A stretch of 64,000 bases of DNA from Armatimonadota bacterium (GCA_031386985.1 JANNCV010000005.1:2049-66048), one strand, 5' to 3'; counted from the stretch's first letter, positions 3,711 through 15,324 are shown. Translations and numbers: made by a program. Notes: generated by a model not told the origin, from the sequence alone.

Positions 3711-4602
3711 GTGCCCAAACCCGAACCGTCATATCCATGCTCGAAGAGTAAGCGATTTTGCCATCGGGACTGACCGCCACCGCGGTTATGGGGCGCTCGT
3801 GCTTCTCACTCTTAGATTTCAGGCTCAAGTCGTCTCCGCTTAACAACAGGAAGAGATTATCTTGGGTCCCGACCACCAGCGTTTCTCCTTCTGGAGTAAA
3901 TGCTACGGCGTTCGCTTCGGCCTTTGCCGTCGCCCTTTCGCTCCCGGAAGCCACATCCCAAAGCTTAACGCTATCGCCGCCACCCGAAGCCAAGGTCTTG
4001 CCATCCGACGAGAATGCCAACGCGCGCCCGTTATCAGAGTGCTTCATCGTTCTCGACTTTTTAAGGGTCGCGGTATCCCAAAGGTGGACGGAGCCGTTGT
4101 CATCCATCGTTGCCAGCGTCTTTCCATCCGGTGAAATCGCAAGGGCATTTACGGCGTAGTTATGGGGCAGCTTCTGAGAGTCGGCGGGCGAGCCAACATT
4201 CCAAACTCGCGCGCTATTATCCTTGCAAGCCGCGAACAGGCGCTTACTGTCTGGGCTAAAAACCAATCCGTGAACCGCGCCCTCCATGTCCGTGTAGGTG
4301 TGGGTTTCCTTCCGCGAAGCCATATCCCAAATCTTAACCTTCTTATAGATATCGCCCGAAGCGAGGAATTTTCCGTCGGGACTGAAAGCGAGCCCACGTA
4401 CTTCACCATCATGCCCCTCTAAGGTGGCGGTGGATTGCTCTGAACCGGTGTCCCAGAGTCTAACCGTGAGATCAACGCTTCCCGAAGCGAGTAACTTGCC
4501 ATCGGTTGTGAGGGCCAAGCTCGAAACATCGCGGGTGTGCCCCGCCAAAACGGTCGAATTTTGCGCAGACATAAGCAGCGCGGCGAAAAGGAGCGTTTTC
4601 AT
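3703..4602 (-). CDS. secreted WD40-repeat protein
   Basis: It has a signal peptide 'MKTLLFAALLMSAQ' and about seven repeats of the 'GH...V..LAFSPDGK.LASGS.D.TV.LWD' WD40 pattern. Confidence 0.9.
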   Translation of the reverse strand: MKTLLFAALLMSAQNSTVLAGHTRDVSSLALTTDGKLLASGSVDLTVRLWDTGSEQSTATLEGHDGEVRGLAFSPDGKFLASGDIYKKVKIWDMASRKETHTYTDMEGAVHGLVFSPDSKRLFAACKDNSARVWNVGSPADSQKLPHNYAVNALAISPDGKTLATMDDNGSVHLWDTATLKKSRTMKHSDNGRALAFSSDGKTLASGGGDSVKLWDVASGSERATAKAEANAVAFTPEGETLVVGTQDNLFLLLSGDDLSLKSKSEKHERPITAVAVSPDGKIAYSSSMDMTVRVWALK

Positions 4603-8804: not shown

Positions 8805-9784
8805 TTTTGGTGGTTGGGGGCGCGGGATATATTGGCTCGCATATGTGCCGCCGATTGGCTCAGGCAGGCCTGCCGTTTGTCGTTTTCGACAACCTATGCG
8901 CCGGGCATGCTGAAGCAGTTGCTAGTTATGATTTGATTCAAGGCGACCTGCGCAGCGAACTCGACGTTCGAACCGCGCTGCAACGCGTTCAGCCTGATGT
9001 TGTCTTGCACTTCGCCGCCCATATTTCTGTGGGCGAGAGCGTGCGCGAGCCCGCGAAATACTTCGAAAACAACACGGCCGGAGTTTTGAATCTGCTCGAT
9101 CGTCTTCGGGAAGCCAATGTCGGTCGCTTTGTTTTCTCTTCCACTGCCGCTATCTTTGGCGAGCCGCAGTATGTACCGATTGACGAGGATCATCCAAAAG
9201 CACCGACCAGCCCCTATGGCGAAAGCAAGCTAATGGTTGAGCGGATATTGGACGCGTATGATGTCGCTTACGGCCTTCGATCCGTGTGCTTAAGATATTT
9301 CAACGCCGCCGGAGCCGACCCATCCGGCGAAATCGGCGAAGATCATTCGCCCGAAGAGCACTTGATTCCGGTCGCGATTCGGGCGGCTCAGGGTTTGCGG
9401 CCGGCTTTGAAGGTATTCGGCACCGACTATCCGACTCCAGACGGTACGTGCGTTCGTGATTACATTCATGTGAATGACCTCGCCGAGGCCCACTTGCTCG
9501 CCATCAACCATTTGCGTTCTGGCGGCGATTCACGGAAGTTCAACCTGGGTAACGGAGCGGGTTTTAGCGTCAGGGAGGTGATTGAAACGGTTTCGCGAGT
9601 GGTAGGAATGCCCGTTCCTCATGAAGACGCCGCAAGAAGGCCCGGTGACCCGGCGACGCTCATCGCGAGTTCGGCTCGTATTCAAAATGAACTGGGCTGG
9701 GCACCAAAATGTCCCGACCTCGCAACCATTGTCGACCACGCTTGGAACTGGCATCGGTCACATCCAGGCGGGTTCGGCGGGTAG
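8801..9784 (+). CDS. galE: UDP-glucose 4-epimerase
   Basis: 'MILVVGGAGYIGSH' is a Rossmann GxxGxxG motif, 'YGESK' is the SDR catalytic YxxxK, and 'DGTCVRDYIHVNDLAEAH' is typical of GalE. Confidence 0.9.
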   Translation: MILVVGGAGYIGSHMCRRLAQAGLPFVVFDNLCAGHAEAVASYDLIQGDLRSELDVRTALQRVQPDVVLHFAAHISVGESVREPAKYFENNTAGVLNLLDRLREANVGRFVFSSTAAIFGEPQYVPIDEDHPKAPTSPYGESKLMVERILDAYDVAYGLRSVCLRYFNAAGADPSGEIGEDHSPEEHLIPVAIRAAQGLRPALKVFGTDYPTPDGTCVRDYIHVNDLAEAHLLAINHLRSGGDSRKFNLGNGAGFSVREVIETVSRVVGMPVPHEDAARRPGDPATLIASSARIQNELGWAPKCPDLATIVDHAWNWHRSHPGGFGG

Positions 9785-9803
9785 AATTTGAGGCGAGAAG
9801 GGC

Positions 9804-9879
9804 GGGCCTGTAGCTCAGTGGTTAGAGCGGGCGGCTCATAACTGCTTGGTCGTGGGTTCGATCCCCACTGGGCCCACCA
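9804..9879 (+). tRNA. tRNA-Met (anticodon CAT), elongator type; a lysidine-modified tRNA-Ile2 is not excluded
   Basis: Hand-folded cloverleaf: acceptor GGGCCTG/TGGGCCC, D-arm GCTC-AGTGGTTA-GAGC, anticodon loop CT-CAT-AA, T-arm GTGGG-TTCGATC-CCCAC, encoded CCA. G1:C72 is paired, so it is not an initiator. Confidence 0.9.
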
Positions 9880-9917
9880 AATCCTCCTTTCGCCAACCCC
9901 TCTTGAAGCAAACCAAA

Positions 9918-12056
9918 ATGAAAGTTCTCGTCATAGGATCAGGCCCGATTGTGATCGGACAAGCGGCGGAGTTTGATTACGCGGGAACTCAGGCCTGCAA
10001 GAGCCTTAAGGAAGAGGGCCACCAGGTGGTTCTTATAAACAGCAATCCCGCTACGATCATGACTGATCCGGGCGTTGCCGACTTTCTTTACATTGAGCCT
10101 CTAAACGTTGACTTTTGCGAACGAGTGATCGCTCGCGAACGACCCGACGCGCTCTTGCCAACCCTGGGCGGCCAAACGGGGCTCAACCTCTCAATCCAAC
10201 TCGTAGATGCCGGGATATTGGATAAGTACAACGTCAAGATGCTCGGAACGCCGATCAGCGCGATCAAGAAAGCCGAAGACCGAGAGCAGTTCCGCGAGCT
10301 GATGCGCGAGATCAAAGAGCCGGTGCCAGAGAGTTGGATCGTGGAAACCCCGGAGCAACTTGAGGCGCTATTAGAAACCGCGCCTTACCCCTGCATCATC
10401 CGCCCGGCTTACACGCTGGGAGGAACGGGCGGAGGCATCGCCAACACCCGCGAAGAGCTTTGGTCAATCGGCAATAACGGCCTAAAACTCTCGCTGAAGA
10501 GCCAGATTATGGTCGAGCGGAGCTTGCTGGGCTGGAAGGAAGTGGAGTACGAGGTGATGAGAGACAAGAAAGGTACGTGCATCACGATCTGCAACATGGA
10601 GAACTTCGATCCTATGGGGGTTCACACCGGCGACTCTATCGTGGTCGCCCCTTCGCAGACGCTCAGCGACGTGGAGTATCACATGCTCCGAACCGCATCG
10701 CTCAAGATCATTCAGGCACTCGGGATTGAGGGAGGCTGCAATGTCCAGCTCGCTGTGAATCCCGATAGCTTTGATTATTACGTCATCGAAGTGAACCCGC
10801 GCGTCTCCCGCTCGTCGGCTCTTGCCTCAAAAGCTACCGGCTATCCTATCGCCCGCGTTTCGGCCAAGATTGCCATTGGTAAGACCCTAGATGAAATTGA
10901 CAATCAGGTTACAGGCACCACGAAAGCCTGCTTTGAACCAGCGCTTGACTATTGCGTGGTAAAGATTCCTCGCTGGCCATTCGACAAGTTCTCGTCAGGT
11001 GATCGAACTTTGTTTACGCAAATGAAGGCGACTGGGGAGGTCATGGCGATTGATCGAAGCTTTGAAGGCGCTTTGATGAAGGCGATTCGGGGCTTGGAGG
11101 TAAAGCAGAAAGATCTCTGGCACGAAAAGTTCGCGGGCCCCCGTAGCATAGGCTTCCAGCCTATTCCGGAGGGAACCGGAATCACCAAGAAAATCGGCAA
11201 TCATCTACCCCATTGGACCAAGGAAGGGGCAATCTATGCGATTACTTATCGTTTGGCTGATTCGGTTCCGGCAGAAAAACTCAACGAATGGAAGTTCGAA
11301 AGAGATCGGATTACCAACCTTGAAGAGGAGCGCGGAGTTAAGGCTGAGACCGAGGAAGCGAAACGGATTTTCTCCGAAGCAATGGAGCGCTATTTAGACT
11401 CTGGACACGGCTCTTGTGTCCTGAGGCAGCCGGAGATAGCCAAAACCGTGATCGCAGCCTGGAAGCACTTTGATGGGCAACACTATCATGTTCACGCGCA
11501 TTGTGTTATGCCAAATCACGTGCACCTCGTTGTTGAACCGGTAAATGAACACAATTTGAGCTCAATTTTGCATAGTTGGAAGTCGTTCACTTCTAACCAG
11601 ATTAATAAGATCACAGGAAACTCTGGAACGCTTTGGCAAACTGAATCTTATGATCGAATCATCCGAAATGAAGCAGAGTATTCGAGACAGGTGGAATACG
11701 TTTTGAATAATCCGGGGCAGGCCGGACTCAACGATTGGTCATGGGTCGGAGGTAGCTTTAACAGGCTGGAAGCCTGTTCTACGGACGCTTTGCGTCAAGC
11801 CATCAAGATCCCAACCGATGAGCGGCTTTGGGCGATTGCCGAGGGGTTGAGAAGGGGCTGGGGCGTGGATGAGGTGTACAAATTGTGCCGTGTTGACAAG
11901 TGGTTCCTGCGCAAAATTCTCAAGCTAGTCCATGAAGAACCCGTCTTCGAAGTTCAAGGCTATAAGATGGTTGATACGTGTGCCGGCGAGTTTGAGTCGA
12001 AAACTCCTTACTATTATTCAACCACCGAGCAAGAAAGCGACGTAGCTATTCATTAG
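9918..12056 (+). CDS. carB: carbamoyl-phosphate synthase large subunit, N-terminal half (split carB), interrupted in-frame by a RAYT-type transposase domain
   Basis: '[28 protein letters not shown]...' through '[28 protein letters not shown]' is the CarB carboxyphosphate ATP-grasp domain. After about 215 foreign codons the frame returns to CarB oligomerisation-domain residues '[17 protein letters not shown]...WFLRKI...[20 protein letters not shown]', then stops at the domain boundary. The ORF-track start at 9846 overlaps the tRNA, so the ATG at 9918 is used. Confidence 0.85.
11143..11182 (+). repeat. left REP-like hairpin (GTAG + ATAGGCT-TCC-AGCCTAT) abutting a second hairpin ATTCCGG-AGGGAA-CCGGAAT
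   Basis: Two perfect 7-bp stems were read directly from the sequence. The GTAG tetranucleotide lies 2 nt 5' of the first stem. Confidence 0.8.
11761..11782 (-). repeat. right REP-like hairpin (ACAGGCT-GGA-AGCCTGT + TC + CTAC), inverted copy of the left one
   Basis: It has a perfect 7-bp stem. Its reverse complement GTAGAACAGGCTTCCAGCCTGT matches the left repeat, with a compensatory stem change. Confidence 0.8.
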
Positions 12057-12062
12057 GTTTCA

Positions 12063-13676
12063 ATGTCAGAATCTATCCCGATGCGTTTCTGGGTCGCGTT
12101 TTTCGTTTGTGTTCTTCTGGTGGGATGCTCAGGAGAGAAATTTAAGGCACCAGTCTCGAAGGCGAGCGTTCTTCGCTACGCCATTCCCAATAAGCCAACT
12201 ACTCTGGACCCTGGCGTGGTGCAAGATAGCGACACGATTGAGGTTCTTCAGCAGGTGTTCGAGGGATTGGTGGGGTGGGGCGAGAACAACGAGCCGGTAG
12301 GACTCTTGGCGGAAAGTTGGGAGTATGAGCAAAACGGAAAGGTGATCGTTTTTCATCTAAAGAAGGGCGTGAAGTTTCATAATGGAAGGGAAGTAAAGGC
12401 CCAAGACTTCAAATGGAGTTGGGAACGCGTGTGCTCGGCTGATTTGAAGTCAACCGCATCGAGCTATATGACCGACATCGTCGGGGCGCAAGCCTTGATT
12501 GATGGAAAAGCCAAGGAGATTTCGGGTGTGAAAGTCCTTGACGATTACACGCTGAGCGTTGAACTCCTCATCCCCAAACCCTACTTTCTCGGCAAAATGG
12601 TTTATGTTGCCTTCGCCGCCGTCGCAAAGGAGGCCCAAGACGGGCTCACCGAAATGAAGGGTGTCGCCAATATGGTCGGAACGGGTCCCTTCAAAGCGGA
12701 GCGTTATGAAACCGAACAACTCATGGTCCTGGCCGCAAATGACGATTATCACGGCGGAAGACCAAAGCTCGACAAAATCGAAAGGCCCGTCGTCTTGGAT
12801 GCTCAAACCCGGCTCAACAAATACAAGAACGGAGAGCTTGATGTGTGCTTGGTCCAGCGGGCCGACGTAGATGGCATCATGAAAGATTCCGAGCTGAATG
12901 CCGAGTTGACCTTCATGGAACTCCCCTCCGTTTTCTTTATCGGATTCAACAGCTCCGGCATCTATCCTCCGTTCAAGGATCGCCGGGTTCGACGCGCGTT
13001 CGCAATGGCGATTGATCGGAGCCGAATCGTGAACACCTTTATGAAAGGGATTAACACTGAAGCCCACGGAATTATTCCTCCCGGAGTGTCGGGGCATCGC
13101 GAACAGGCCAAGGACCTGCCTTATGATCCTGAAGCCGCGCGCAAACTCCTCGCTGAGGCGGGATTCCCTGGGGGCAAAGGGCTCCCGCCACTGGAGCTGA
13201 GATACCGGGAAGGCTATCGAGATATCAGCCTTGTCGCCGAAGCCGCCTGCAATGACCTGGCCAAGAACTTAGGGGCACCCGTGAAAGCACAAAGCAAGGA
13301 ATGGAAGGCTTTGCTCGATTTCTACAATCGGGGTCAAAACGCCTTCTTTCATATGCGTTGGAAGGGTGACTACCTCGACCCGCAGAACTTCATTAGCCAT
13401 ATGCATGCGAGCTTTGGACCGGAGAATCACAGCGGCTATGTGAACGCAAAACTTGATAAACTGTGTAAAGAGGCGGACGCCATCACGGATCAAAACAAAC
13501 GAATCAAGCTTTACCAAGAAGCCGAAGACCTGGCCCTGCAAGATGCCACATGGATTCCTGTTTACTTTCAGCGCGATGCCGTCTTAACCCGACCCGGAGT
13601 TCAAGGAATTCGAACTAATTTGTTCGGATTCTTGCCTCATACAACCACAACTGCAACCGCGCCGAAAGCCCCATGA
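12063..13676 (+). CDS. ABC transporter substrate-binding lipoprotein, family 5 (peptide/nickel, OppA/DppA-like)
   Basis: It has a lipobox 'LLVGCSG' and family-5 SBP blocks 'TLDPGVVQDSDTIEVLQQVFEGLV' and 'KFHNGREVKAQDFKWSWER'. Confidence 0.85.
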   Translation: MSESIPMRFWVAFFVCVLLVGCSGEKFKAPVSKASVLRYAIPNKPTTLDPGVVQDSDTIEVLQQVFEGLVGWGENNEPVGLLAESWEYEQNGKVIVFHLKKGVKFHNGREVKAQDFKWSWERVCSADLKSTASSYMTDIVGAQALIDGKAKEISGVKVLDDYTLSVELLIPKPYFLGKMVYVAFAAVAKEAQDGLTEMKGVANMVGTGPFKAERYETEQLMVLAANDDYHGGRPKLDKIERPVVLDAQTRLNKYKNGELDVCLVQRADVDGIMKDSELNAELTFMELPSVFFIGFNSSGIYPPFKDRRVRRAFAMAIDRSRIVNTFMKGINTEAHGIIPPGVSGHREQAKDLPYDPEAARKLLAEAGFPGGKGLPPLELRYREGYRDISLVAEAACNDLAKNLGAPVKAQSKEWKALLDFYNRGQNAFFHMRWKGDYLDPQNFISHMHASFGPENHSGYVNAKLDKLCKEADAITDQNKRIKLYQEAEDLALQDATWIPVYFQRDAVLTRPGVQGIRTNLFGFLPHTTTTATAPKAP

Positions 13677-13716: not shown

Positions 13717-15324
13717 ATGAAGCACTCGCTTTATCTCATCGTTGCGATTTCTGCCCTATTGTCTGCCGGATGTGGAGACAGCGGGTTCAAAAAGACCGAT
13801 CCAGAAGCCAAAAAGGCCAACGTTCTACGCTATCCAATACCGAATAAGCCCACGACGCTTGACCCGGGTGTTGTGCAAGATGGCGACACGATTGATGCGC
13901 TTCAACAAGTTTTTGAGGGCTTAGTGGGTTGGAATGAGCAAAATGAACCGACCGGGCTTCTTGCTGAAAAATGGGACTTTGAGAAAGACGGAAAGGTCAT
14001 CGTGTTTCATATCAAGAAGGGCGTGAAATTCCACAACGGGCGCGAGCTTAAGGCCGAGGACATCAAATGGAGTTGGGAGCGAGTTTGTAGCCCCGAACTT
14101 AGATCAACCAATGGAACCGGTTACATGACCGATATCATGGGCGTTCAGGAGGTTCTGGATAGCAAGGGCAAGATCACCGATATCTCCGGGATTAAGGTTG
14201 TTGATGACTATACGCTCAGTGTTGAGCTTACGGCTCCTCGACCCTATTTCCTTGGCAAACTAACTTATCTTGCTTTTTCAGCAGTTGCGAAGGAAGCACA
14301 AGATGGCTTGAAAGAAATGGCAACGGTTGAGCACATGATCGGCACCGGCCCATTTAAGGCCGAGCGTTACGTTCCCGAACAGTTGCTGACAATGGTTGCG
14401 AACAAGGATTACCACGGCGGAGCTCCCATGCTTGACAAAATTGAGCGCGCCGTTGTGCTCGATCCCCAAACTCGCTTAAACAAGTTCAAAAACGGGGAGG
14501 CTGAGCTTTGCTTAGTTCAGCGAGCCGACGTTGAGAGTATTGAAAAGGACGCCAACCTCAAGCCGCAGCTTAAATTCCTTGATCGGCCCTCAATTTTCTA
14601 TGTGGCGATGAACTGCTCTGGTAGCTACCCGCCCTTTAAGGATGTGCGCGTTCGCCGGGCGTTTGCGATGGCGATTGACCGCAAGAAAATTGTAGAGGTT
14701 TACATGAAGGGGGTCAACAAGCAGGCGCATAGCATCGTTCCTCCCGGAGTCTTTGGTAGTCGAGAGATGGCAAACGAAATCCCCTATAACCCGGAAGAGG
14801 CCAAAAAGCTTTTAGCTCAAGCCGGCTATCCGGACGGTAAAGGGATGCCCGAACTGGAGATTCGGTATCGGGAAAGCTATCGGGATATCAGTTTGGTCGC
14901 CGAAGCCGTTTCCAACGATATCGCCAAGAACCTCGGCGTGAAAGTGAACAATCAAGCCAAGGAATGGAAGGCGTATCTCGACCTTTACAACAAGGGCGAA
15001 AATCGCTTCTATCATATGCGCTGGGCGGCGGATTATCTGGATCCTCAGAATTTCATCAGCCACATGCTGGCAACTTACGGGCCTGAAAACCACACCGGGT
15101 ATTCGAATCCGATTTTCGACAAGCTTTGCAAAGAGGCGGACTCGATAATGGATCCGGCTAAACGGGCAGCCCTCTACCAGCAGGCCGAAGATATCGTTTT
15201 GCAGGATGCGATTTGGGTTCCAGTTTACTTCCAGCGCGATGCGGAGTTGCAGAGTCCAAGAGTGAAGGGAATGCGAGAGAGCCTCTTTGGCCATCTCCCT
15301 CACACCAAAACCACCTTAAACTGA
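13717..15324 (+). CDS. ABC transporter substrate-binding lipoprotein, family 5 (tandem paralog)
   Basis: It is collinear and highly similar to 12063..13676, with lipobox 'LLSAGCG'. Confidence 0.85.
   Translation: MKHSLYLIVAISALLSAGCGDSGFKKTDPEAKKANVLRYPIPNKPTTLDPGVVQDGDTIDALQQVFEGLVGWNEQNEPTGLLAEKWDFEKDGKVIVFHIKKGVKFHNGRELKAEDIKWSWERVCSPELRSTNGTGYMTDIMGVQEVLDSKGKITDISGIKVVDDYTLSVELTAPRPYFLGKLTYLAFSAVAKEAQDGLKEMATVEHMIGTGPFKAERYVPEQLLTMVANKDYHGGAPMLDKIERAVVLDPQTRLNKFKNGEAELCLVQRADVESIEKDANLKPQLKFLDRPSIFYVAMNCSGSYPPFKDVRVRRAFAMAIDRKKIVEVYMKGVNKQAHSIVPPGVFGSREMANEIPYNPEEAKKLLAQAGYPDGKGMPELEIRYRESYRDISLVAEAVSNDIAKNLGVKVNNQAKEWKAYLDLYNKGENRFYHMRWAADYLDPQNFISHMLATYGPENHTGYSNPIFDKLCKEADSIMDPAKRAALYQQAEDIVLQDAIWVPVYFQRDAELQSPRVKGMRESLFGHLPHTKTTLN

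Follow-up and report, generated by a model that had tools for sequence, protein, structure and literature searches.

A REP-flanked HUH tyrosine transposase reads in frame within carB of an Armatimonadota bacterium

The DNA analyzed here, called the window throughout, is a 64,000-nucleotide stretch from an Armatimonadota bacterium (GCA_031386985.1, JANNCV010000005.1:2049-66048) in which carB, encoding the large subunit of carbamoyl phosphate synthetase (CPSase), carries a transposase in its own reading frame. The open reading frame (ORF) at 9918..12056 on the plus strand is open from end to end, with no stop or frameshift, and its codons 408-623 (11139..11786, +, around 215 amino acids) form an insert in which a REP-associated tyrosine transposase (RAYT) of the HUH type lies between two inverted repetitive extragenic palindromic (REP) hairpins, with neither a start nor a stop codon of its own. 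The arrangement is probably that of a REPtron-type cassette which exists as a domain within the reading frames of host proteins and depends on them for its translation. An earlier, sequence-only reading of the window had proposed that carB contains, in frame, a complete transposase of the RAYT-type HUH class, and hidden Markov models, a sequence search against the Protein Data Bank (PDB) and a fold search all agree on this point.

The host part of the ORF was identified with Pfam, TIGR01369 and PRK05294, and by alignment with E. coli CarB. Its first part (9918..11138, +) contains the pre-ATP-grasp and ATP-grasp carboxyphosphate domains and corresponds to E. coli residues 10-405, and its second part (11787..12056, +) is a shortened oligomerization domain (CPSase_L_D3; E. 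coli residues 423-479 and 494-552) that ends with the TAG stop codon at 12054-12056. In the window protein, Pfam detects CPSase_L_D1 at amino acids (aa) 2-117, CPSase_L_D2 at aa 121-326 and CPSase_L_D3 at aa 628-674, with Y1_Tnp between the last two, and the NCBIfam profiles return CarB equivalogs plus REP_Tyr_transpos. As residues 3-396 of the window protein align with residues 10-405 of E. coli CarB (1BXR) and residues 624-679 with 423-479, aa 408-622 are extra and fall in the linker that opens the oligomerization domain. The ORF is only the N-half of a split carB and ends after 'YYYST..', as in most Armatimonadota relatives; no C-half, second N-half or other RAYT was found within the window, and in a related genome (L084, 15546-17282) a C-half of 578 aa lies around 3 kb downstream of the N-half. 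The identification of the ORF as carB was supported in this way by its domains and alignment, with the correction that it covers just the N-half and that its oligomerization domain is around 50 residues short. The missing residues belong to the second half of this domain (11880-11975, aa around 655-686), and the CPSase_L_D3 match covers profile positions 2-48 of 80. The same deletion is common to the RAYT-bearing, solo-REP and empty-site close relatives of this CarB, similar shortenings arose separately in three other loci (L029, L031 and L033), and the region is enlarged by 20-100 residues in other Fimbriimonadaceae.

The folded domain of the RAYT was delimited at 11184..11753 (+) with Y1_Tnp, REP_Tyr_transpos, the structure 4ER8, an AlphaFold2 (AF2) model, Foldseek and the ratio of nonsynonymous to synonymous substitution rates (dN/dS). 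It contains an LPHW motif (11205-11216, +), the HUH motif H534-V-H536 (11517-11525, +) and the catalytic-Tyr motif 'EYVLNNP' (11694-11714, +), with Y594 at 11697-11699. The profile search fixed the assignment, with CPSase domains on both sides and Y1_Tnp (PF01797) scoring 28.1 bits in the full protein and 30.4 bits for the insert alone, above its gathering score of 23. The NCBIfam profile NF047646 (REP_Tyr_transpos) reached 73.7 bits with the insert and 69.8 with the fusion, below its cut-off of 80, in a match restricted to profile positions 25-136 of 146, a near miss in which the N-terminal part is divergent. The best sequence match in the PDB was the E. coli TnpA-REP protein (4ER8, TnpArep; E=6e-4), whose 'HMHCI' and 'DYIYINP' align with H534-V-H536 and 'EYVLNNP' of the window protein. 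When the insert was aligned with its relatives, N126, H127 and H129 (insert numbering) were invariant among 64 homologues, and Y187, N191 and P192 were kept in at least 90% of them. An AF2 model of the insert (mean per-residue confidence, pLDDT, 87.5; predicted template modeling score, pTM, 0.82) gave 4ER8 again as the top Foldseek match in the PDB (E=3e-7), followed by 29 chains of IS200/IS605 TnpA. The template modeling scores were modest (0.44-0.67) because of an inserted helical hairpin: the model has two helices between beta-strand 1 and the HUH strand, besides the N-terminal LPHW motif. Sequence and model together support that the insert is a RAYT-like HUH/Y1 tyrosine transposase domain with a predicted ferredoxin-like HUH fold and its catalytic motifs present.

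The inserted block comprises 215 codons, with boundaries uncertain by a few bases, while the outer ends of the inverted repeats span 644 nt, which is not a multiple of 3. It is missing from around 75 related carB loci and has a GC content of 45-50%, versus 53-57% in the flanks. As the sequence-only reading had stated, a codon-by-codon inspection found no ATG, GTG or TTG between the left hairpin and LPHW; the first canonical start codon after the left hairpin is the TTG at 11250-11252, already inside beta-strand 1. By canonical starts, the transposase is translatable solely as an internal domain of CarB. No promoter was found upstream of the RAYT, the four weak promoter-like matches being all inside or downstream of it, and no terminator-like site was found within the insert region. 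In the AF2 model of the whole fusion, aa 408-420 and 614-620 have pLDDT values below 50 and aa 430-612 values of 83-95, so that the prediction for the RAYT is a self-standing domain held by flexible, REP-encoded tethers, a separate unit in the linker between CarB domains.

The hairpins were analyzed both as DNA and as code. In the left REP (11141..11165, +), the GTAG head (11143-11146) is followed by a spacer C, the stem ATAGGCT (11148-11154), the loop TCC (11155-11157) and the stem AGCCTAT (11158-11164); the right REP is inverted (11760..11784, -) and reads, on the minus strand, GTAG (11782-11779), AACAGGCT, TCC and AGCCTGTT. Repeat search, pattern search and REP covariation uphold the earlier claim that inverted GTAG-REP hairpins bracket the insert. 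The two arms (11141-11165 and 11760-11784) are of 25 nt each and 88% complementary, the head-plus-core pattern occurs twice in the 64 kb against 0.13 occurrences expected by chance, and folding as single-stranded DNA (ssDNA) gave -5.7 kcal/mol for the left REP and -7.6 kcal/mol for the right one, with z values of about -3. Both lie inside the carB ORF and are translated, the left one as 'PRSIGFQPI' and the right one, on the plus strand, as 'NRLEACST', so that they are not extragenic as the definition of REPs has it. Inverted REPs of the same build, with a GT(A/G)G head, a perfect stem of 7-8 bp and a 3-nt loop, were also found in L001, L002, L022, L084 and L085. This DNA doubles as code for junction peptides rich in Gly, Pro, Ser and Arg, and the flanking peptides of carB carriers form reverse-complementary pairs (GFQP/RLEA, GVPP/GRDA, TVPV/DRDG and GGSP/GEPP).

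Conservation of these hairpins extends to synonymous sites. Across the gene, the third-position base is identical in the window and two related genomes at 35.5% of codons, while the right REP contains the 25-nt run 11761-11785, the longest stretch identical in the three genomes over all 712 codons, and the sole windows of 8 codons with no third-position difference at all; an 18-nt identical run, the third longest of the gene, falls in the left REP. When 17 distinct REPs from eight loci were aligned, G1, T2 and G4 of the head and the central C of the loop were invariant, 96.3% of the stem cells were paired, and compensatory double changes were detected in seven of the eight pairs; these values were reached by none of 500 shuffles and were not approached by any slid register. 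The pattern argues that the hairpins are functional DNA kept by selection, and not just linker codons.

A search with the whole fusion protein yielded at least 44 distinct CarB proteins that carry a RAYT at the same linker site, with the HUH, LPHW and Y..NP motifs all intact in 37-38 of them. They come from NCBI, JGI, ENA and Logan assemblies, in contigs of up to 2.9 Mb, and the minority with a source label are Fimbriimonadaceae, Fimbriimonas or Armatimonadota. A scan of genome contigs with chosen peptide patterns was biased and under-sampled the carriers, which the protein searches corrected. The four carriers from that scan (the window, L002, L001 and L022) form one clade in a neighbor-joining (NJ) tree of the CarB flanks. 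The proportion of synonymous differences (pS) between the window and L002 was 0.599 in the insert and 0.627 in the flanks, and between the window and L001 it was 0.682 and 0.719, respectively; dN/dS was 0.087-0.112 in the insert and 0.012-0.015 in the flanks. By these values, the cassette was inherited and diverged jointly with carB in the lineage of the window, and the insert is under purifying selection. We relied on such pairwise contrasts because the congruence of the CarB and RAYT trees was weak and the deep NJ topology unreliable.

The ORF of L002 is intact, with 712 codons. In L001 (GCA_040081075.1) an in-frame TAA at 1594-1596 falls inside beta-strand 1 of the nested RAYT, in a contig with a coverage of 3.7x, and two codons further on there is a TTG that was used as a start by the gene caller; this TAA is either a sequencing error, given the low coverage, or a sign that carB is there cut into three pieces. 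In both genomes the sole recorded product is an NCBI 'transposase' of 242-267 aa (L001 1603-2406 and L002 3144-3872) that comprises the C-part of the RAYT and the CarB oligomerization domain, and no gene was called for the N-part of the nested carB.

The comparison of close relatives further showed that the same carB position holds different contents. The L084 and L085 loci have carB flanks with 87.6% nucleotide identity and a synonymous divergence (dS) of 0.69, whereas their cassettes are only 58.7% identical, with a saturated pS of 0.77, a dN of 0.40 and different REP stems, and the break falls exactly between the shared heads CGTGGCA...TGCCACG. In a second pair (P0122 and P0123), CarB is 93% identical and the RAYT 44%. 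The L083 locus, which is nearer to L002 (88.7% nucleotide identity) than the window is, carries a solo REP with a different stem, REP remnants are kept in P0202 and P0212, and clean empty sites were found at 87-91% identity in P0216, P0225, P0231, P0235 and P0236, the kind of unoccupied carB that the sequence-only reading had suggested looking for; no conserved DNA target motif was evident at the empty sites. One carB clade has a decayed RAYT that lacks the REPs, LPHW and the Tyr motif, and in a pair from this clade (P0182 and P0183) CarB is 93.5% identical and the insert 83%. The solo-REP and empty-site alleles of close relatives show that the insert is dispensable for CarB. The comparisons indicate that cassettes have been gained, swapped, reduced and decayed at one carB position, and that vertical persistence is combined with horizontal replacement. 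The proposal that this is a tolerated insertion in a surface linker, like the palindromic elements of Rickettsia, gains from the predicted flexible junctions, the empty and solo-REP relatives and the many lineages involved.

Smaller rearrangements were also seen at this site. At the right junction of L085 (around 3720-3760) the motif 'TGCCAC(C/G)TTGGA' is present twice in tandem, and once in L084, which could be the footprint of a cassette exchange or a short target duplication. In P0148 there are 6 in-frame copies of the REP-derived 'PDQGRDALAT' in carB, in P0146 around 5 in-frame copies of a 32-aa REP-derived unit, and in P0160 a REPIN-like block is duplicated on both sides of the RAYT. The unsplit carB of P0212 (Fimbriimonadaceae) has, beside the REP remnant that it keeps where other carB genes hold the RAYT, a further REP-like peptide (HAREGHNTHERDARAT) at the junction between N- and C-half, exactly where carB is split in other lineages.

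The nesting is not restricted to carB. When 1.84 billion representatives were searched exhaustively by phmmer with the 216-aa insert, 10,581 matches were obtained, and among the best 150 of these, 44 were nested, with at least 100 residues of another protein on each side and with intact motifs in 42 of the 44; 37 more were one-sided, and for some of these, the CarB fragment P0247 for example, a contig end seems to have cut the sequence. Hosts were identified by Pfam on 48 long proteins, nested and one-sided together. They included aminoacyl-tRNA synthetases (ValRS, LeuRS and AlaRS), proteins of DNA repair and processing (UvrA, RecG, XseA and DinG-like helicases), biosynthetic enzymes (CarB, MetH, IspG, MurC(-Ddl) and isochorismate synthase), many restriction-modification enzymes of type I, type IIG and ISP, and others (CCA/poly(A) polymerase, Zn-dependent alcohol dehydrogenase (Zn-ADH) and GH38 mannosidases). 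Host domains were found on both sides together with REP-type junction peptides, as in the Zn-ADH '...RGIGFQP...HRLEADAT|AVIGLGVMG'. One candidate, P0008, was rejected as a nested case, as its RAYT is C-terminal and ends before the right REP; in this locus (L086, 1994-3075) the ORF of speH (AdoMet decarboxylase) reads through the GTAG left REP into the 3'-adjacent RAYT, which makes it a read-through fusion. Some free RAYTs bear the JGI names 'menaquinone-specific isochorismate synthase' or 'putative DNA methylase', which probably derive from RAYT copies nested in those genes.

A free-standing relative with 52% identity (P0004) lies between genes as a canonical REPtron, accompanied by REPIN arrays; its REP hardly differs from the one in the carB cassette of L085, and its stop codon is supplied by the GTAG of the downstream REP. 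A pattern scan of JGI metagenomes detected the REP class of the window, GTAG-N-A(C/T)AGGCT-TCC-AGCCT(G/A)T, at no fewer than 120 loci (L089-L208) from soil, peat and freshwater, often as REPIN-like inverted pairs 45-110 nt apart, with about half of the loci in stop-free stretches of at least 200 codons. None of them contained carB, and a RAYT was represented by one weak match only (L133), so the scan documents the REP class in other organisms and not relatives of the window locus.

Mechanistically, a REP-RAYT-REP cassette would have come to rest in a carB linker that permits insertions, oriented and framed like its host gene. Nesting would let the element be transcribed and translated at no cost of its own, through an essential gene, and would shield it from decay: since a frameshift, nonsense mutation or imprecise deletion would truncate CarB, selection on the host would keep the transposase ORF open. 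CarB itself would stay active, since flexible linkers attach the inserted domain between the carboxyphosphate and oligomerization domains. The fused RAYT might still cleave and join ssDNA at the GT(A/G)G hairpins on either side of it, in the manner of TnpA-REP, and cassettes could be exchanged by REP-directed strand transfer into a REP-marked site or by homologous recombination through the conserved carB flanks. Beyond carB, and more tentatively, the 'LPHW' RAYT clade might constitute a distinct class of mobile elements, without start or stop of their own when nested, with REP ends that translate to flexible linkers, with expression dependent on the host and protection by selection on essential ORFs, which would spread and be exchanged when the HUH enzyme, directed by REPs, transfers ssDNA strands into one of a restricted number of permissive sites; this broader proposal could well be wrong.

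Several points weigh against the proposal of a cassette living as a host-dependent domain. No further REP copies were found in the 64 kb of the window, 22 kb of L084 or 10 kb of L022, where GT(A/G)G hairpins occur solely at the cassette ends, and for this reason the RAYT has no visible substrate beyond its own flanks; transposition to new sites can at most be conjectured from such a distribution. The activity of the fused RAYT is itself deduced from just its conserved motifs and conserved hairpins, and cassettes may have been replaced through homologous recombination of the ordinary kind, in which the RAYT plays no part. The purifying selection seen in the insert may come in part from CarB requiring that the inserted domain fold well, and the clade that has decayed catalytically retains a fair degree of conservation. 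The CarB and RAYT trees agreed weakly (Pearson r 0.36), and the deep NJ trees were poorly resolved. Initiation may also be non-canonical, at an ATA, ATT or ATC after the GGAGGG at 11168-11173. Finally, if the TAA of L001 is real, carB tolerates a cut at that point and the argument of protection is weaker.

The same data can be read as exaptation, in which the insert is a domesticated module that benefits the host, either as an ssDNA nuclease or REP-maintenance enzyme with a dosage tied to carB, or as a structural or regulatory addition to CPSase that might compensate for the shortened oligomerization domain in the lineage of the window. The sequence-only reading had also offered a CarB-RAYT fusion with a new function, which may be the case. 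A dN/dS of around 0.1 over saturating synonymous divergence fits this account, as do the co-occurrence of the insertion with the loss of around 50 residues in the window's clade, the conservation of the domain at 83% identity in the clade without REPs and Tyr motif, and the general behavior of RAYTs, which are inherited vertically in single copy like housekeeping genes and kept for unexplained reasons (PMC5581495). However, very close relatives with the same shortened oligomerization domain do without the insert (the solo REP of L083; the empty sites of P0216, P0225 and P0235), unrelated cassettes replace one another in near-identical hosts, and the presence of the same RAYT clade in dozens of functionally unrelated proteins fits opportunistic nesting and not a role specific to CarB, so we regard exaptation as unlikely.

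Less probable still is that the insert is an inert passenger, a once-active REPtron reduced to a catalytically irrelevant loop that stays open only since carB must be read through. The lack of other REP copies in the 64, 22 and 10 kb sampled, the location in a variable linker that tolerates other length changes and the existence of a decayed clade are all compatible with it. Selection for read-through, however, removes just stops and frameshifts and does not predict a dN/dS of 0.09-0.11, nor the retention of HUH, Tyr and LPHW motifs in most carB copies and in 42 of the 44 copies nested in other genes, nor nucleotide-perfect hairpins at synonymous sites with compensatory changes in their stems.

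Very little speaks for a removable intervening sequence, by programmed or stochastic DNA excision, by RNA splicing through REP pairing or by intein-like protein splicing, even if the 25-nt inverted arms could pair and bring the carB junctions together and Y1 transposases of IS200/IS605 elements excise precisely (PMC8266576). The frame is open across the cassette in dozens of lineages, which would be needless for a spliced or excised element, and the AF2 model predicts a compatible domain-insertion topology. By Pfam, no Hint/intein domain is present in the window protein or in five homologues; the junctions ('...FAGP|RSIGF' and '...ACST|DALRQ') vary between lineages and have no conserved Cys/Ser/Thr or His-Asn residues; and Rfam covariance models (E up to 1) detected no intron or other RNA family in 9700-12200 besides a tRNA-Met. 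The earlier suggestion that the element must excise to restore carB was not supported: the frame is open, carB and cassette have been passed on together while synonymous sites diverged to saturation, and dozens of lineages keep the same arrangement intact. An artefact, in the form of an assembly chimera or a carB pseudogene, is effectively refuted in spite of the origin of the sequences from assemblies of the metagenome-assembled type, the internal stop in L001 and the NCBI annotation that splits a 'transposase' from the L001 and L002 homologues, since the exact window protein (P0121) is found under two source collections (NCBI and Logan), the architecture recurs in at least 44 proteins from four data sources, the L002 ORF is intact, and the window copy has no frameshift or stop, a flank dN/dS of 0.012 and no second N-half carB beside it in the 64 kb.

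The cassette resembles known systems in some properties and departs from each of them in others. The closest is the REPtron: with E. coli TnpA-REP (4ER8) it shares the HUH and Tyr motifs and the fold, 4ER8 being its best match in both sequence and fold, and with group-3 systems such as that of S. maltophilia, where GTAG precedes a perfect 8-bp palindrome with a 3-nt loop, it shares inverted REPs of the same build; the GT(A/G)G head, perfect 8-bp palindrome and 3-nt loop agree with the group-3 REPs that TnpA-REP of S. maltophilia cleaves (PMC8266576). In the carB cassettes, RAYT and REP types change together from lineage to lineage, and their free-standing relative is a textbook REPtron with REPINs. 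By contrast, the carB cassette is intragenic and in frame without its own start or stop, there is no dispersed REP/REPIN population in the sampled DNA of its carriers, different cassettes compete for one carB site, and its RAYT has the two-helix hairpin insertion, the LPHW motif and an NCBIfam score just below cut-off. A second likeness is with short repeats inside genes. Rickettsia palindromic elements (RPEs) are inserted in frame in protein genes, as Ogata reportedly described in 2000. With these and with intragenic REPs, the cassette has in common palindromic repeats translated within functional proteins, in linkers or loops, overlapping hosts (repair proteins and aminoacyl-tRNA synthetases) and REP-only alleles at the same carB site, whereas those repeats measure 20-150 bp and are non-coding in their own right, and the carB insert carries a transposase gene of around 190 codons between its repeats. 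Intragenic REPs are documented, for example, in uvrA and tRNA synthetase genes of O. terrae (Di Nocera 2013, PMC3733652).

Inteins with homing endonucleases are likewise confined to specific sites of conserved, often essential genes and translated with the host, show polymorphism of presence, absence and replacement in close relatives, and have a nuclease domain that can decay. The carB insert, however, lacks a Hint domain and splice-junction residues and apparently stays in the mature protein, and its nuclease is an ssDNA HUH enzyme that recognizes the hairpins at its own ends and not a double-strand homing endonuclease. The ShiLan-type homing insertions in phage DNA methylases (PMC11855218) are also stop-free in the host frame and devoid of intein or intron features, with a predicted loop-out from the host enzyme and the evolutionary pattern of an active homing element; there, though, the HNH endonuclease is out of frame and has its own GTG start and TAA stop, while the carB nuclease is in the host frame with neither. 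Elements of the IS200/IS605 family (IS608, ISDra2) encode an enzyme of the same fold and catalytic superfamily and likewise have a subterminal hairpin at each end and an ssDNA chemistry that allows seamless excision and insertion, but their hairpins are direct and strand-specific, with guide tetranucleotides, and their insertions disrupt genes. IStrons also avoid harm to the host gene, which they do by RNA splicing, whereas the carB cassette does so as an in-frame protein domain.

In the surroundings of carB, 38 nt separate the end of a tRNA-Met gene (CAT, 9804-9879) from the carB ATG. In the mechanical ORF list, the carB ORF begins at a TTG within this tRNA gene, and the NCBI-derived version of the window protein (P0121) starts 11 codons downstream of a conserved peptide. 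Directly downstream of the N-half lie two tandem paralogous genes of SBP_bac_5 lipoproteins (peptide/nickel ABC substrate-binding; 12063-13676 and 13717-15324), an order that is the same in L001, and L002 has at least the first of them before the contig ends.

No description of an in-frame nested RAYT was found in the literature searched, the coverage of which was incomplete, so that a prior description is possible. The arrangement suggests that mobile elements have a mode of persistence not described so far. Core enzymes can harbor a complete DNA transposase as an inserted domain, among them CarB, three aminoacyl-tRNA synthetases, UvrA, RecG, MetH and IspG, and if the broader proposal is true, the LPHW RAYT clade would occupy an intein-like niche without protein splicing, with carB, valS, leuS, alaS, uvrA, recG, xseA, metH, ispG, murC and restriction-modification genes as hosts. 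Nesting explains annotation errors such as 'transposase' ORFs cut from carB and RAYTs labeled 'isochorismate synthase' or 'DNA methylase', as well as long 'fusion' proteins discarded from earlier surveys of Y1 enzymes. The insertions also provide natural examples of permissive sites and linker designs for protein engineering, and a tractable system in which the sole visible substrates of a RAYT are its own two hairpins. RAYTs have been a puzzle for a long time, since these single-copy transposases apparently do not copy themselves and are nevertheless maintained over very long periods (PMC5581495). Physical nesting inside an essential ORF offers a concrete, testable route for this persistence: if the protection holds, the host would die or pay a cost whenever a frameshift, a stop or a sloppy deletion inactivated the transposase.

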